Shown here in pieces: positions 20,272 through 57,287 of a stretch of 64,000 nt of DNA; position 1 is the stretch's first letter; every line of letters begins with the position of its first letter. The notes beneath the pieces were generated by a model. That model saw nothing but the letters and a program-made list of their open reading frames with translations. It was not told the DNA's origin and did no database searches. The stretch comes from an uncultured Gemmatimonadales bacterium (lineage in GTDB: Bacteria > Gemmatimonadota > Gemmatimonadetes > Gemmatimonadales > Gemmatimonadaceae). Both the position numbers and the translations under genes were made by a program. The stretch lies in the NCBI GenBank assembly GCA_963793305.1, contig CAWBZV010000012.1, forward strand, positions 32,001 to 96,000. Reading direction: 5' to 3'.

Positions 20272-23200
20272 CTACTTGCATTTCGCCAAGTACGCTTTGA
20301 TCACCTGCACCGCGACGCCCAGCCGCCAGAGATCCTGCCAGCCGTAGTACCCGCCTCCCCGTGGCACGTAGTGCTCTATGCCGAGGCAGCCGAATAACCC
20401 CGTGGTGGGCTTGTTCGGCAGCGCAGCATACGGGTTGAACGTCGCCATCGGATCCGCCCCTCCAACGTTGGGGGTGTTCTCGAAGATCGAGATCGAACCA
20501 CCGATCGCGCTCGTCGGGCCAGGAATGCACGCGGTCGGAACCGTCTGACACAACTGGTATGCGGCCACCGTCGAGTCGGCCTTGGTCCCCGGGGGCGGGA
20601 ACATCGGATTGCTACCGGTGATGTCGCCGGCAGTGCAAGACGGCAGGTTGATGCTGCAGTACCCTTGATTCGGCGTGAACGCGCAGTCCTGCCCAGGCAG
20701 GTTGCACGTCGGACCGGGAATTCCGCCGCTACTGGCTGGAGCGGGGCCGTTGCCGGGCGGGCCATTGCTGGCTCCCGGAGCCGTTGGGCCGGGGCCAGGA
20801 TCGCCGGATCCGGGCGGTATGTCGCTCCATCCACTACCATCGCAGACCGCGAACTCCCCGTTCCCGCAGAAGAACGTGCCGCTCGCATCCGTCGAATTGA
20901 TCGGATCTCCACCGCCGAACGCGTATTGGTTGATGCCCCCCGACAGCCCGAGCGGATCCGGCAACAGGAAACGCCGGGTGACGGGGTCGTACCAGCGCGC
21001 CCGCATGTAATACAGCGACGTGACCCCATCCTCGTACAACAAGGACTTCCACCGCAGCGGTGTCGTATCGCTGGTGGTGGCGACGCGAGCGTTCCCCCAG
21101 GGATCGTATTGAATCGAGTCTTCGATCCCCGAGCTATTGAACTGGCCGATGACATTGCCGCCCGCATCGAGCGCATAGTAGTGCACCGTCGACGAGCCTT
21201 TCGCGCCCTTGATGCGTATCAGCGGATAATCCGCTGTGCCGGGATAGTACGCGAACTCGGACAAGCGGGTATTCGCCGAACCGTCGAGGATCGCCATCAA
21301 CTGATTGTTGTCCCAGAGATAGTACCGATCCACCGTGCCGTTCGTGGTGCGACGCGCGAGCTGACCGTAGTTGTCGTAGTCGTAGATCCGCGTGGTGTCG
21401 CCCGATACGATCTGCGCCAGGCGACCGTCCGCGCTCCACGTATACTGCCTCGTGGTGGAACCACTCGTCATACCAGAACGGTCGCCGTCCGAGTCGACGG
21501 TGAACGTGAGCGCGCCCCACGCGGTCAATCGACCATCGGACCCGACGGTGCCGATGGTGTCCGCCGAACCCACGACAACAGTGTCGAGACTCCCGGCCGC
21601 GTCGAACCTGTAGCCGTCCGTCTCGTCCGTCTGCACGACACGCGTCTCGTTTACCGTGCAGCCGTTGCCGTACAGCTGGTTCCCCGGACACGAGGTGATA
21701 TTGTCGTTCCACTGACCGATCTGTCGTTGCTGGAGCTCGCCCACCCCATCGTACGAATAGAACTCGACGGAGTCCGGCTTCACCACACCGTGATCGAGCT
21801 CAATCACGTGGGAGAGATTGTCGTACCCGTAGCCTCGATACAGGTTGAACCCGGTCCACGTCGTGTTTCCGAGCATGCCGAAGGACGTATAGGCATCGAT
21901 GCGGCTCCCACTGACGCCGGTAAACAGCATCGTGTCCGTTCGGAACACCGGGTCGCGACGGAATGAGATCGTGTCGGGGCCGACGACGACGTGATCCAGC
22001 GTCCCGGTCGTCGCGTTGTAGAGGAATTTCCGCGTGTACGGATCGATCCCGGTGACGTTGCTGCTGACCGTGGTCGTCATGGAATCGACGCGATCGTGCG
22101 AGTCGTAGAAGTACGTCCGCTTGTACGACCGATTACCGGCCAGCAGAAAAATGGTGGTCGACGAATCGACATTGCCCGTGCTGGGCGAGAGGTAGCTAAT
22201 CTCGCGCGTGACCGGATTCCAGGCGTTGACCGTGTCGCCCAGCTTGGAGTACGTGATGATCTCCAACGTATCGAGCTCGCCGGTGAAGCTCGGCGGCCGG
22301 TGCACGTGCGTCACCCGGCCCAGCAGATCGTAGAGATACTTGACCATCTGGCCCTGCCGATTCGTCGTCGTCGCCGTCGTCAACCTCGACGTATACGTGG
22401 TCGTCTCCGTGCGATTCGCCGGATCGGTCTGCGTGACGGGCAGATTCACCGCGTTGTATGTGGCGCTGAACACTTCCCCTTTGGGATTCGTCAGGGATGT
22501 GACGTTGAGGCCATCGCGCTGGTAGATCGTCGGGTTCGCGTGCACCCCATCGAACACGGAGTCCACCCGGTTTAGGAGATCGTACAGCGTCGTCGTCACC
22601 TGCGTGGTGATCTGACTCGTGTTGCTGTAGGCGCTCAGCGTCACCACTGAGTCCCGGCCGAAGCGGTCGAACCGCCTGGCGGTGAAGTGCTGACTGGATT
22701 TCAGCATGACCGTGTCTACGTTGCCGGTCCAGCTGTCGTACACAAAGCGCGTCGTATCGCGAACGCCGTCGACCATCGAGGTGTCCCGCAGCCGCGCGTC
22801 GGGGTGGTAGCGCGTCGTGTCGCCTCCCACCACGGTCGAATCGATGTGCCCGCGCGTCCCGATGAAGAACTGCTGCGTGGGCTGGTTGGTACCGGAGATC
22901 TGGAGCGGTTGGTCGAATGCGCCGTACTGGTAACTCGTCGCAACCTGTCCGGCCGGCTGACTGAAGACGAGCAGCGGCCCGCTATACTGGTACTCATCGA
23001 CGCCTCCGACCGGGTGGGTCACCGTCGCCGGGTATCCGTTCTGATCGTAGGTCACGCTCATCTGGATCCCCATGTTCGTGGTCGAGACGAGCGGCTGTCC
23101 CCACCGATCGGCCGTGAACTGGGTCGTGTCACCGCCGGCGGTCACCACCATGCTTTGGACGAGGTCCGCCTCGACGGGCGTTGCGGGTGTCGTACTCGTC

Positions 23201-25165
23201 AGGCCGGTCGGCACGCCGACGGTCTGCCATGGCGTATAGGTCGTCACGAGGTGAATCGTGCTCAACGTCCCGGTCGAATTGAAGTCGAGCGGCACCTTCG
23301 GCGTGCTCGCCGTCGCCAGCTTCGACGTGATCGGCTCGAACGTGTAGGTCGTGACGTTGCCATTGCGATCGGTGAGGGAGTCGAGTCGACCCGATGAATC
23401 GTAGCCGAACTTCGTGCTATCCCCATCGGGGTCCGTCCATTTCCGCAGGAAACCGCTCGCATCGACCGAGACCAACGTCACCCGGCCGCTGTCGGGCGCG
23501 TTGTCGTTCCCGCGGGGCTCCACGATTTTCGCCAGATGGCCGTTCGCGTCGTAGTGGAGCGTGATGTGCGTGTGCGCCCCATGGTACATCCGCAAAGGGT
23601 CGGAGATGGTGAGCACGCGCGCCTCCGGTCCGAGGCTATCGTCGGTAAACCACACCGTGTCCTTCGCCGTCCGATCCACGACATATCCGGCGGTCTGGCC
23701 GTTCGTCGCGCCCCATACCTCCTTCGAGGAGTCGGGATAGTCCCGCTCCGGACTTCTCGGTACGCCCAGGCTGTCGTGGCTGTTGATCAAGGAGAACACT
23801 CCCGGCGGATCCGTCGTGCCACACGAACACGCGTTCGTGGTGGGATACGTGATCTCGCCGCCGTCGCCGGTCGCCGCCAGGTACTTCGTTTGGTCGACCG
23901 TGCCGTTCGCGTGAAAGTAGCTGTAGAGTTTCGGCGCGCCGGAGAGCGTCCAACCGCGCGCGTACGGCGACGCGCGCTCGTTCAAGACAGCCAGCGTGTG
24001 GGAGGTGTCGGTCACCTGCTCCGTGTGGCCGTCGGCGAAGATCGCCGTCACCACGAGTTGCATCTCGTACGCACCGGAGACGAATCCCGAGGGCAACGTG
24101 GCGTCGACGTTGATCGCGCCGGCGAGTCGGAACGGCTTAGTCGTGCCGTTCGCGGGGGAAGCGCTGAAATTGAGAATCGTCTCGCCGTTCGTGAACGTCG
24201 CCCAGGTGCCGTGCACCAGCGCCTGGAACGTGTACTTCGTCACGGACGGGGCGCCGCTGACCAACGTGACATCCGCGTAGACCACCGGACGAAGCGCGAC
24301 CCGATCGCCGTTGTACACGAGGCGCACTCGATTCGCGGCACCGCTGGTGATGTACCCGGGCGTGCTCATCGATGCGGTCATCGCGAAGCAATTGACGGCG
24401 CAGCGCTTGACGTTCTTGGTCATCTTGATTCGTGTAGCTCGTCGATACGAGGAACGAGTGCCCGATGGTGTAGGCGTAGCTGCCCGTCGCGCTCGCACCG
24501 CTCAAGCTCGCCGTGAGCCGAATGGCCCCTGTCGCGCCGACCGAATCGGTGACGGCGAAGTGCACCGCGACGTTGGAGGAGCCTTGCGCGCCGACCGTCA
24601 CGGATGACGGCGCGGTGCAACTCGCGATGCCTCCAGGCGAGGGCGTGCAACTGAGGCTGAGGGCGAAGTTCTCGCTCACGCTCATCTGACTCGTGACTTT
24701 GAAGACGACCGAGTCACTCGTGCGGGAGATGAGCGTGATACCACTGTCAGCCGGCGTGACCACCGCCGGTGGATGGTTGATCGTCAGATTGAAGTTGCCA
24801 CACGAGCCATTCATGCCGTTGCCGAACCCGCTACACGCGGTGACCGCAAACGTGTTGGTGCCCGGTATCAGCGTGTAGGTGCCCGAGCTCGTGTCGCACG
24901 AGACGCCGCCGAAGGAAAGCGCCGCGCCATTGAACGTTCCTGACGCGCTTTGGAGCGGCGCCCCGGCGGGACAGACCGAGATGGTCTCGGTGATGGTGGG
25001 CGCAGTGACCGTAGTGATCGACGGATTGAACGTCACCGTCGGTGGCGGGTTGTGACAGGTATCGCACATGAAGTACGGTCGTGGGTGCGCTTGCTGTGCG
25101 AGCACCCCGGTGGCGAACGCGCACAGGGTGACGAGCAGCGCTAGGGCGAGCGAACGAACGGACAT
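20272..25165 (-). CDS. rhs: Sec-signal-bearing RHS/YD-repeat protein with RHS-associated core (+1 frameshift near 24416)
   Basis: YD repeats; core end YYMRARWYDPVTRRFLLPDPLGLSGGINQYAFGGGDPINSTDASG. ORF 24137..25165 supplies the signal peptide and RBS and joins at DDQ/NVKRC. Confidence 0.85.
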
Positions 25166-28612: not shown

Positions 28613-29818
28613 CTATGACCAGAAGCGCCACGCAACGGCGATGGTGACGAGCTGGGCGCCGATGACGAGGGCGACGCACCCGGGCCACCCGGCCCATCGC
28701 CACAGGAGGCCGGGCAGCTCTCCGCCGACGCTGCCGCCGAGGTAATAGAAGGCGACGTACAGCCCAGCCGCCGACGACCGGGTCGCGAGCGGCGCCGCGT
28801 GTTGGAGGTAGCTCGTCGACGAGGACTGGCAGACGAAGACCGCCGAGCTGCACACGGCGAGGCCAATCGCGACGAGCGCGAGATTGTGGGTCAGGGTCAG
28901 CGGCATGATGGCCGCCGAGATGAGCAATGCCCCGGTCAGCGTCCTTCTCGATCCGAATCGATCAATCCACTGTCCCGCGACGGGCGTCACGAACACGCCG
29001 ACGAGGTAGACGACAAAGATGCTGGACAGGAGCGCCGGACCGAGCGAGAAGGGTGGGTCGGCCAGGTAAAAGTTCACGTAGGTGAACGTCGCGACGAGCG
29101 AGAACAGCACACTGAATCCAACCGCATAGGTCGCGATCAATCGCCGATTCCGCAGGTGCGGCATAATGGCGAAGGGGGCGGCGTGCGGTGTGAAATGTCG
29201 CTCCGTGGGGAGCCACGCCCACGTGACCAGCGCACCGACGACGTTGAGGACGCCGAGGACGACAAATGCCATGCGCCAGTCGGCGACCGACGTGACCAGC
29301 CCGGCAATCACCCGCCCGGAAAATCCACCGAGGACATTCCCGGTCACGAGCGCCGCCATCGCTGCTCCGACACCGCGTCCCGCGAATTCCTCGGTCACGT
29401 ACGCGATCATGACGGCGAATACCGCGGGCATGACCAACCCTTGTAGAAACCGCCAGACGACGAGCGCGAACAGCGTGTGCGCGGTCGCCGCCAGCATCGT
29501 CGGAATGGCGAGCACGAACATCGCGGGCACGATGACGCGCTTCCGGCCGAGGCGATCGGCCGCGAGTCCGACGAACGGAGCGGCCAGCGCGACGGCCGCC
29601 GTCGACACGCTCACCGTGAGGCTGGCGCCGGCTTTGCTGACATTGAACTGATGTTCGAGGGTCGGTAGCAGCGGCTGTGTGGCGTAGAGATCCAGGAACG
29701 CGCACATGCCGCTGACCCCGACCGCGAGCCGCGCCGCTCCGCGGCGCGTCGATGCAGCGCTATCGCGCTGCTCGACTGGTCTGTTCGCCAAGAGATCTCC
29801 TTCGTCGATCTCTCTCAT
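28613..29818 (-). CDS. MFS transporter (YnfM-like)
   Basis: LYATQPLLP, ADRLGRKRV, YYLGGSVG; ATGA overlap with the upstream gene. Confidence 0.9.
   Translation of the reverse strand: MREIDEGDLLANRPVEQRDSAASTRRGAARLAVGVSGMCAFLDLYATQPLLPTLEHQFNVSKAGASLTVSVSTAAVALAAPFVGLAADRLGRKRVIVPAMFVLAIPTMLAATAHTLFALVVWRFLQGLVMPAVFAVMIAYVTEEFAGRGVGAAMAALVTGNVLGGFSGRVIAGLVTSVADWRMAFVVLGVLNVVGALVTWAWLPTERHFTPHAAPFAIMPHLRNRRLIATYAVGFSVLFSLVATFTYVNFYLADPPFSLGPALLSSIFVVYLVGVFVTPVAGQWIDRFGSRRTLTGALLISAAIMPLTLTHNLALVAIGLAVCSSAVFVCQSSSTSYLQHAAPLATRSSAAGLYVAFYYLGGSVGGELPGLLWRWAGWPGCVALVIGAQLVTIAVAWRFWS
29732..29812. repeat. 81-bp three-hairpin dispersed element, copy A (in the MFS N-terminus)
   Basis: 25-nt and 17-nt blocks identical to copy B, plus a shared GAGATC-N9-GATCTC. 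Confidence 0.9.
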
Positions 29819-55980: not shown

Positions 55981-56907
55981 CGTCCGGGTCGCAACGTCGA
56001 CCGCCGCCACGGCATTGCGACCCTGCAGCGTGACGAACACGGTCCGACCGTCAGGCGCCATGCTCAACCCTTCGGGACAGGGCGACTTCGGAAACTCGGC
56101 CGTCGCAACGACATCGGTCGCCGGAATCGCCACGCGCCCGATCTCGGTATGCGTGCCAACGTCCATGAAGCGGAGCTCACCGCGACCGGGATCGCTTACC
56201 ACCGCCGTGCGGCCATCAGGCGTGATGGCGATCCGATAGGGGAACCCGAAGTCCGGTACTGTCGTCGTGACAGTCCCCGATGACGTCGGGACAACGCTCA
56301 CGGTCTTGACGCTGTCGCTCCCGACCCAGACCTCGGCCCCGTTCGGCGTGACGCCAATGCCCTCGACGAGCGGCGCGACATTGAATGAGCGCACGAACGC
56401 GCGAGCGGTGATGTCGAGCTCGGACACGGTCCCGTCGGCGACGTTGCTCGTGTACGCGTGCCGGCCGTCGGCCGTGAGCGCGACCATGTGCGTCGCGCGA
56501 CCGTGCGTCGGGATCGACGCGTCGACCGTGCCACGCGGCACGTTGACGACCATCACGGCCTGCGCCGTCTGCACCGTCACTAACAGCGTCGTGTCGCCCG
56601 GCAGAAACGCCGAGCCATGCGGCCGCTTGTTGTCGGCGCCGAGGTCGATCGTGCGGACGACCACCGGGACACGCGGCGCCAGGTCGATCACCGTCAGCGT
56701 GTGACCCGGCGACTGCTGTGGGCCATAGTTCGAGACGACCGCCCAACGTCCATTGTGCGAGATCGCCACCTCGTGCGGCCCCGCACCCGTCGGCAACGTG
56801 GCGATCGTGCGGTGCGTCGCGAGATCAATGATCGTGGCCGTGTTGTCGTTCATGTTGGCGACCACGACCATCCCATGGAGCGTCGCCGCGAGCAGCGCAA
56901 TCATCAT
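55912..56907 (-). CDS. YncE/YVTN-type beta-propeller protein
   Basis: Repeated PHEVAISHNGR / ITPDGR / VAAVDVATR blades; ATGA overlap with the NHase accessory gene. Confidence 0.85.
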   Translation of the reverse strand: MMIALLAATLHGMVVVANMNDNTATIIDLATHRTIATLPTGAGPHEVAISHNGRWAVVSNYGPQQSPGHTLTVIDLAPRVPVVVRTIDLGADNKRPHGSAFLPGDTTLLVTVQTAQAVMVVNVPRGTVDASIPTHGRATHMVALTADGRHAYTSNVADGTVSELDITARAFVRSFNVAPLVEGIGVTPNGAEVWVGSDSVKTVSVVPTSSGTVTTTVPDFGFPYRIAITPDGRTAVVSDPGRGELRFMDVGTHTEIGRVAIPATDVVATAEFPKSPCPEGLSMAPDGRTVFVTLQGRNAVAAVDVATRTLLLTLPVGAWPDGIAYSTLEHN

Positions 56908-57287
56908 GGGAGCACCACTGGCTTGCCGTGCGGGGTATGCCGATACGCATCAGCCCAAGCGTGTTTGCGATCGAGCAACGCCGCGACATCGGTCAGACCT
57001 TTGGCGGTCGCCAAGCGCTCGAGCGTGGCGAGCCAGTGCTCGTAGTAGTGCGTGCCATCGTCACCCTTCCCTTTCAACGCCGCTCCGCGGCGCGTCGATG
57101 CATCGCTTTCAGCGCTGCTCGACTGGTCGGTCGGACCGAGATCGGCTGCGCCGATCTCCTCGGCCAGCGCTGCGGACCACTCGGGCCAGGTAAAATATCC
57201 GCGCTCGGAGAGCGCGAGGGCCATCGCGAACGCCTGGGCGTGCCAGGGTTCGGCGAATACCTGCTCAGGTGGATTCGAGGTAGTCAT
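56904..57287 (-). CDS. Nitrile hydratase accessory (activator, P14K/NhlE-like) protein
   Basis: FAEPWHAQAFAMA, FTWPEW, YYEHWLATLERL, TPHGKPV. Confidence 0.9.
   Translation of the reverse strand: MTTSNPPEQVFAEPWHAQAFAMALALSERGYFTWPEWSAALAEEIGAADLGPTDQSSSAESDASTRRGAALKGKGDDGTHYYEHWLATLERLATAKGLTDVAALLDRKHAWADAYRHTPHGKPVVLP
57078..57158. repeat. 81-bp three-hairpin dispersed element, copy B (in the NHase accessory gene)
   Basis: Same orientation and length as copy A at 29732-29812. Confidence 0.9.

Follow-up and report, generated by a model that had tools for sequence, protein, structure and literature searches.

A dispersed family of short multi-hairpin repeats in a Gemmatimonadaceae genus, found between genes and in frame within unrelated proteins

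The window, a stretch of 64,000 nucleotides from the genome of an uncultured Gemmatimonadaceae bacterium (G000), carries two copies of a short multi-hairpin repeat, each lying in frame in the gene of a different, unrelated protein. The two belong to a dispersed and apparently undescribed family without a gene of its own, for which empty and filled orthologous sites exist in close relatives, and whose copies have one precise and one ragged junction. Judging from these features, the mobile form of the family is probably a single, folded DNA strand that becomes attached precisely at one end and is patched by host repair at the other. In-frame palindromic repeats are themselves already known (RPE, BRE and intragenic REPs), and the value of the present family lies mainly in what its junctions tell about the movement of such repeats. 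The literature on them, in the parts consulted, names no enzyme and says little on junctions. Here, dozens of empty/filled pairs in close relatives make the insertion step directly readable as a precise end, a repaired end, DNA-type loops and a coding-strand bias, and turn the long-standing question of how such repeats move into concrete tests.

The window copies (Table 1) share a 25-mer (at 29732 and 57078), a 17-mer (29765 and 57112) and a GAGATC-N9-GATCTC block (29792 and 57138), as described in an earlier note on this DNA. They align at 84% (E 5e-17) with two 1-nt gaps, which are the compensating indels of that description, and both fold into the three hairpins it proposed together with a weak fourth (z −3.5 to −5.5 versus shuffles, both strands). 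In-frame placement in the same orientation relative to the host gene was likewise confirmed. The 81 bp given for the element holds as the span of both window copies but not as a fixed length, as type A copies range from 66 to 106 bp and the net gain of copy 1 over the empty allele of G004 is 78 bp. In hairpin 1 of this copy the outermost pair co-varies with the junction base. The start of the MFS gene is credible from the sequence, since the stop of the PLP decarboxylase gene lying upstream overlaps it and orthologues begin at the same place. In the NHase accessory protein the loop holding the insert has 43 residues, versus 17–22 in 117 of the 118 homologues that could be parsed (120 fetched). 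AlphaFold2 (mean pLDDT 64.7) keeps the flanking helices and assigns residues 50–76 values below 50, and the insert is predicted to be a disordered loop extension. Contigs of two public runs also skip this insert; the RNA run X20 yielded short, scattered contigs only. Elsewhere in the window, an RHS-repeat gene (20272–25165) is split or frameshifted, its apparent N-terminal part (24137–25165) being off-frame from the main ORF (20272–24423).

Table 1. Positions of the two repeat copies, their parts and their host genes in the window
Feature	Position	Strand	Remarks
Repeat copy 1, type A	29732..29812	-	minus strand carries the GNA loops and encodes the host protein
Copy 1 hairpin 1	29732..29746	-	precise end of element; GGA triloop on minus strand
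Copy 1 hairpin 2	29748..29776	-	central, variable; 4-nt G..A loop on minus strand
Copy 1 linker	29777..29790	+	conserved, single-stranded; family core GTC(G/T)GTT plus 4-6 variable nt
Copy 1 hairpin 3	29791..29813	-	ragged end; outer arm in part similar to host sequence
Host gene 1, MFS transporter (PF07690)	28613..29818	-	element forms codons 3-29
Repeat copy 2, type A	57078..57158	-	net gain 78 bp
Copy 2 hairpin 1	57078..57092
Copy 2 hairpin 2	57094..57123
Copy 2 linker	57124..57137
Copy 2 hairpin 3	57138..57158
Host gene 2, nitrile hydratase (NHase) accessory protein (PF21006)	56904..57287	-	element forms codons 44-70

Both copies of the original pair are real, but they are not alone. BLAST and an iterated profile gave 105 matches in G000, 103 of them at E ≤1e-3, and module-only profiles added 19 more distant copies at E <0.1. 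Type A (75/103; median 78 bp) consists of hairpin 1, hairpin 2, a linker and hairpin 3, and in type B (28/103; median 95 bp) a G/C-run module takes the place of hairpin 3; at least one of these labels is wrong (C3:693023 is type A). In three type B copies (G000:C19:10038-10200, L065 and G000:C14:29893-30042) extra hairpins are nested inside the loop of the module, giving lengths of up to about 165 bp with no ORF in any. Two near-identical genes (G000:C21:6550-7329 and C6:1469-2248) carry an element at the same C-terminal position, which indicates that gene and element were duplicated together. That one of the window copies might be an assembly chimera or other artefact has next to no credibility. 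No independent contig with both flanks was seen across either of them; against this, four other G000 copies recur with their flanks in metagenome contigs at 99.9–100% identity (the sample is possibly the same as that of G000), at least 32 sites are shared with relatives, and G001 retains a 17-nt remnant of the MFS copy.

Among the relatives, exact 13-mer counts were 31 in G001, 11 in G004, 10 in G005, 1 in G003 and 0 in G002, with 0 for the reversed control; three of five pattern matches in G002 are true copies. G003 possesses a two-hairpin subfamily of its own (71 pattern matches, part of them overlapping, against 1 in the control), which forms head-to-tail arrays of 62–69 bp units. Four such arrays of 4–6 or more units lie at G003:C1:2607156-2607495, 3407106-3407440, 4078037-4078259 and 4117046-4117269 (L381, L378, L307 and L382); their units have GATC- or CTAG-centred arms at both ends, and older subfamilies may accordingly have a 4-nt core in common at their two ends. 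The type A pattern matched 23 times in G000 and nowhere in 400 further genomes sampled from the phylum. A search through 185,579 species genomes returned 59 loci, mostly titled Gemmatimonadaceae; of 17 inspected under other titles 13 were chance matches and four true copies, two of the latter in records of other taxa that are probably mis-binned. Within the searches made, the family was thus found only in one genus. The window and four loci gave no match in Rfam, and neither there nor in the literature searched were the repeat family, its loop pattern or the build of its junctions found, in agreement with the earlier note's view of an undescribed element. That literature, covering few subscription journals, reported no such repeat in Gemmatimonadota and no GNA loops tied to such repeats, and the sections consulted of PMC3184786, PMC3116915, PMC3110155, PMC3733652, PMC10969869, PMC2229807 and PMC3333891 do not describe the family.

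Empty alleles establish the repeat as an insertion. In all five hosts checked (MFS, NHase accessory, polA, smc and meaB) the insert is absent in relatives: from 4/4 aligned orthologues of polA (net 75 bp) and of smc (net 63 bp), from 5/5 of meaB (net 75 bp), and from the NHase accessory gene of G001 and G004 (net 78 bp, 26 codons). In the MFS gene, the site is empty in G004, the element is missing from G003 and G017, G005 is ambiguous, and G001 holds an in-frame remnant of 17–18 nt. The earlier inference of a coding-compatible mobile palindromic element, conserved at the nucleotide level, is borne out by these empty sites and by the copy number; the opposite outcome, in which only two copies exist or distant orthologues carry the same segment, is contradicted by the 103 copies and by the 117 NHase accessory homologues without it. 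Thirty G000 copies are fully contained in ORFs, at internal (15), C-terminal (12) and N-terminal (3) positions, and the MFS copy, missed by the gene caller, makes 31. These calls come from our own hexamer caller (87% coding), and the 15 terminal cases may be mis-called. With 72/103 copies not contained in a called ORF, the family is depleted from genes (31/103 versus 87% coding density). In-frame copies occur internally in PolA, Smc, transketolase, MeaB and MazG, and hosts further include an alcohol dehydrogenase and enzymes of the arginase and PLD families; the copies use several reading frames and both orientations, one frame dominating (17/30).

The loops carry a strand-specific signature. 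Of 221 triloops, 167 are C-GNA-G on the strand corresponding to window minus versus 2 on the complement, where bulk DNA gives 2.7% and 2.2%; 98 of the 167 are GGA, nearly all from hairpin 1, and once hairpin 1 is left out all four bases occur at N (46/45/43/11) versus 3 loops on the other strand, although loop and pairing counts are not independent, the copies being related by descent. The G003 subfamily has the same signature. According to the portion of PMC13037366 consulted, GCGNAGC/GCGNNAGC sequences form extra-stable, nuclease-resistant DNA mini-hairpins, the RNA counterparts being much weaker. The stems co-vary heavily, with compensatory changes. Template switching can yield such co-variation without selection (PMC5941160, as far as consulted), and the stems are less telling than the loops. 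The GNA strand coincides with the host coding strand in 26:4 ORF copies (p 6e-5) and is co-directional in 23:7 type A copies located between co-directional genes (p 0.005), while open frames are equally many on both element strands. Type B shows no orientation bias (10:9). With respect to replication the strands divide 32:17, with 28 copies in weak skew. The GNA loops and the coding-strand bias speak more for a single-stranded DNA element under selection for frame than for an RNA module.

The intragenic RNA-structure module put forward in the earlier note, or a selected peptide module, consequently appears highly improbable. Strong folding with compensatory changes, the dominance of one frame and the retention of the full MFS copy in G000 would suit it. 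It is opposed by the location of most copies outside ORFs, in several frames and on both strands, by the DNA-type loops, by unrelated hosts whose orthologues manage without the element, by the in-frame deletion remnant at the MFS site of G001 and by the lack of an Rfam match.

The junctions were compared by placing at least 120 metagenome loci and about 50 loci from relatives on G000. Among the matches listed, at least 127 were metagenomic, 21 of which could not be placed, and at least 83 sites were represented, 51 of them empty in G000 and 32 shared. The hairpin 1 end, which is the 3' end on the GNA strand, is precise: 90/103 copies begin with the intact 13-nt hairpin. In 69/90 copies the adjoining outer base forms a pair with element position +14, where 20,000 shuffles gave at most 56. 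Of the 33 empty sites listed, 27 are well aligned; at the precise junction, the base is the same as in the filled allele in 22 of these and is able to pair with position +14 in 20. By eye, among five genic sites filled in G000, this base is clearly shared with the empty allele at polA only. Target positions −3/−2 are mostly purines in empty sites, amounting to a weak R-R-N preference only; the C at −4 that we take to mark a topoisomerase-I-like motif was not seen there. Conversely, at the other end host bases are lost, replaced or duplicated, also at sites with flanks 96–98% identical. Among the empty sites listed, identity over the first 10 nt was 0.89 on the left and 0.48 on the right for type B (n=9), and 0.83 and 0.73 for type A (n=24); in shared copies left-side identity also dips, to 0.83–0.84. 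The outer arm of hairpin 3 matches host DNA at 71% versus 32% when shuffled (n=15), a suggestive likeness in a comparison that is biased since the arm end was chosen by best folding. Terminal inverted repeats are absent (best 12-nt end-to-end match mostly 7–8 over 65 registers), as is a fixed target duplication, exact flanking duplications being at control level. The element is therefore not a MITE, which would have both, and the duplications seen with type B are variable and spacer-separated.

In several CTAG-type copies (G000:C5:1302475, C11:122559 and C3:1417835; L307) the first stem appears to extend by up to 8–14 bp into apparent host DNA and takes in a stop codon, as if one arm had been copied from the flank. 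At two sites (L229 against G000:C3:1368433 and L182 against G000:C9:73061) the rewritten or duplicated DNA of the ragged end retains promoter-like −35/−10 hexamers, the intervening bases being changed. One G003 copy (L028, G003:C1:340766) directly follows what is presumably the 3' end of a 23S rRNA gene; the corresponding G000 site is empty.

Type B insertions carry a further trace. Upstream host DNA is duplicated after a spacer in 16/59 distinct flanks versus 6/590 controls, with duplications of about 13–118 nt (the longest being tandem units) and spacers of 0–35 nt. Spacers have 51% GC in their first 15 nt (intergenic DNA 62%), and 41/59 begin with A. At one junction, three genomes hold three different spacer/duplication sets, and tandem re-insertions occur. 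A captured donor flank or phage DNA was discarded as the origin of the spacers: searches of G000 returned own or orthologous sites and chance-level 16–18-mers only, viral sequences gave 0 matches for one spacer and 0 for the type B module, and 21 viral pattern matches included one weak profile match only. Spacer and duplication might alternatively stem from one-sided recombination that swaps filled alleles between strains, the spacer being intergenic DNA of the donor. Duplications often begin at a functional boundary (a stop codon at L061/L271, a start codon at L160, a −35 box at L182), and the right copy is in some cases more diverged than the left one, or similar to the allele of a relative, as such an exchange would predict. 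Still, the 53-nt right copy in G001 (L030) is nearly identical to its own left copy, the spacers at one junction are mutually unrelated and lower in GC than intergenic DNA, they resemble neither upstream host DNA nor other G000 loci, and first insertions are left unexplained; allele exchange is accordingly regarded as unlikely, and as somewhat less likely than the enzymatic alternative considered next.

A RAYT, IS200/IS605 or IS110 transposase flanked by the same ends, anticipated in the earlier note, did not turn up in the genus genomes searched. These comprised six genomes, five of them incomplete assemblies. Profiles for Y1 (PF01797) and RAYT (NF047646) matched 0/6, the single-contig G003 included, and TnpB (PF07282) none of five, control genomes being matched in these searches; a Y2 profile gave 0/6 and matched no control genome either. 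IS110 occurs in G000, G003 and G005 and was not found in the element-rich G001; an IS110-dependent element was rejected, as no IS110 recombinase with the same ends was seen. No element lies within the IS110, reverse transcriptase (RT), recombinase and HNH loci examined (30 recombinase matches as loci); tyrosine recombinases and HNH proteins gave no candidate mobiliser in these loci, and no mobile-type gene lies between paired copies. Among 601 proteins beside copies in relatives, 39 have no close G000 homologue, and no transposase was recognized by eye among these 39. DUF559 (in 1/5 genomes) and Ku (in all five, and hence not discriminating) were dismissed. So was a GIY-YIG gene with a type B copy just upstream, which is a conserved UvrC-like gene in all five genomes, G002 and G005 lacking that copy. 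In total, no element-linked enzyme was found in the genus genomes searched.

The main rival to the proposed movement is a REP/BIME-like element moved cleanly by a Y1 transposase (RAYT or IS200/IS605) that was lost or missed in the assemblies, with the ragged end, spacers and stem co-variation arising later through repair, template switching and local amplification. It keeps this place because five of the six assemblies are incomplete, but we consider it unlikely. The single-strand hairpin anatomy, missing terminal inverted repeats and tandem arrays are as for TnpA(REP), whose gene was lost late in some strains (PMC3333891, consulted in part); CGTC REPs are likewise without a dedicated transposase (PMC3733652, in part), and the fact that one junction was used repeatedly suggests a nick at the end of the element itself. 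The profile results above weigh against this account, as do the lack of a GTAG/CGTC tag at the ends and of a repeat-flanked Y1 gene in the six genomes, by which a REP/REPIN with RAYT was rejected, and the lack of a fixed 4–5 nt target, by which, together with the missing TnpB, an IS200/IS605 derivative was rejected. The ragged ends at sites with near-identical flanks are a further difficulty.

A SINE-like route, in which reverse transcription primed at the target copies in a piece of mRNA that has its end at hairpin 1, would fit the precise 3' end, the variable 5' end, the extra bases, the variable duplications and the 1-nt identity at the precise joint, and at most sites the GNA strand corresponds to the mRNA. 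It is nevertheless improbable: no match to PF00078 was found in G000, G001, G002, G004 or G005, the two RTs of G003 lie in a mobile region that has no copy of the element close by, and the GNA triloop is a motif of DNA rather than of RNA. That region (G003:C1:129000-254000; L311, L293, L296, L397 and L398) contains IS110 copies, the two RT genes, which are group II intron-like, and an integron-integrase-like fragment; its genes are little similar to G000, and it is possibly a foreign island or contamination.

Under the preferred reading, movement as a folded single strand, the mobile form would be the GNA-loop DNA strand, whose 3' end (hairpin 1) would be joined by ligation to the 5' side of a nick in the target, preferentially in the non-template strand exposed by transcription. 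The freed host 3' end would then be trimmed or extended and patched to the 5' end of the element, leaving deletions, extra bases or a variable duplication. Joining could be due to an HUH-like strand transferase acting in trans or to a host enzyme; because no mobilising enzyme was found, we can only infer the chemistry. Insertion would be blind to frame, and genic copies would persist if the ragged end happens to give a multiple of three, and only at a tolerant loop or terminus, which would make the encoded peptides passengers. The net insertion is a multiple of three in 11/13 genic type A copies from relatives; as a counter-point, this is so also in 15/24 intergenic type A copies, which is above chance and not predicted by a pure filter. 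A bolder version, which we advance as a tentative and rather doubtful one, is that the family is transposase-free selfish DNA: a chain of nuclease-resistant GNA mini-hairpins, joined one-endedly by host enzymes into transcription-exposed DNA, which re-nicks its own boundary and writes 10–35 untemplated bases and variable duplications per event. If true, this would be a mode of mobility unlike that of IS, MITE, REP-RAYT and retroelements, and would keep supplying new loops to proteins.

By analogy, the family may work like RPE and BRE (in frame, transposase-less) and like YPAL (variable duplications, no terminal inverted repeats). Comparison with the systems below rests on the portions of the cited papers that were consulted. 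Rickettsia palindromic elements (RPE) are 105–146 bp long with one long stem and a 12-bp terminal inverted repeat, in AT-rich endosymbionts (PMC10969869, PMC2229807). The present family resembles them as a short non-autonomous palindromic repeat that is intergenic as well as fused in frame in unrelated conserved proteins, multi-copy and absent from the orthologues. Unlike RPE, it has 63–95 bp, two or three separate hairpins and no terminal inverted repeat in a GC-rich free-living genus, and does not belong to RPE proper; no sequence link was seen, RPE being compared via reviews. Betaproteobacterial repeat elements (BRE) are 75–91 bp, GC-rich, intergenic and wholly intragenic, occur in head-to-tail arrays and have no transposase named (PMC3110155). 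By eye, the first BRE hairpin matches hairpin 1 at 10/13 positions and a C-run/G-run block is similar to type B, but module order differs, the GTCGGTT linker is missing from BRE and the phylum is another. Yersinia YPAL/RU-2 elements (about 168 bp, described as intergenic, with target duplications of 3–26 bp; PMC2229807) likewise have no terminal inverted repeats or TA ends, internal hairpins, variable duplications, and empty and filled sites; unlike theirs, the Gemmatimonadaceae duplications reach 53–118 nt, are spacer-separated and occur almost only with type B. Hairpin DNA, absence of terminal inverted repeats, strand asymmetry, tandem amplification and intragenic copies in repair genes are shared with REP/BIME/REPIN-RAYT and IS200/IS605 (PMC3333891, PMC3733652, PMC3116915), and housekeeping hosts include polA types, as for intragenic REPs (PMC3733652). 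Inverted doublets, a GTAG/CGTC end tag and, in the genus genomes searched, a Y1 gene are, in contrast to these systems, not found, and the junction is ragged with duplications.

For the host proteins, the result is that core proteins of a free-living soil lineage (PolA, Smc and transketolase, and a pyruvate kinase-like protein in G003) carry predicted inserts of 20–50 residues, and insert peptides and terminal overlaps will mislead annotation in the genus. The G003 subfamily entered other proteins independently, in steps of about 21 codons. In PolA (G000:C3:375528-378485, L350), the element landed inside a lineage-specific extension of the genus at about residues 390–450.
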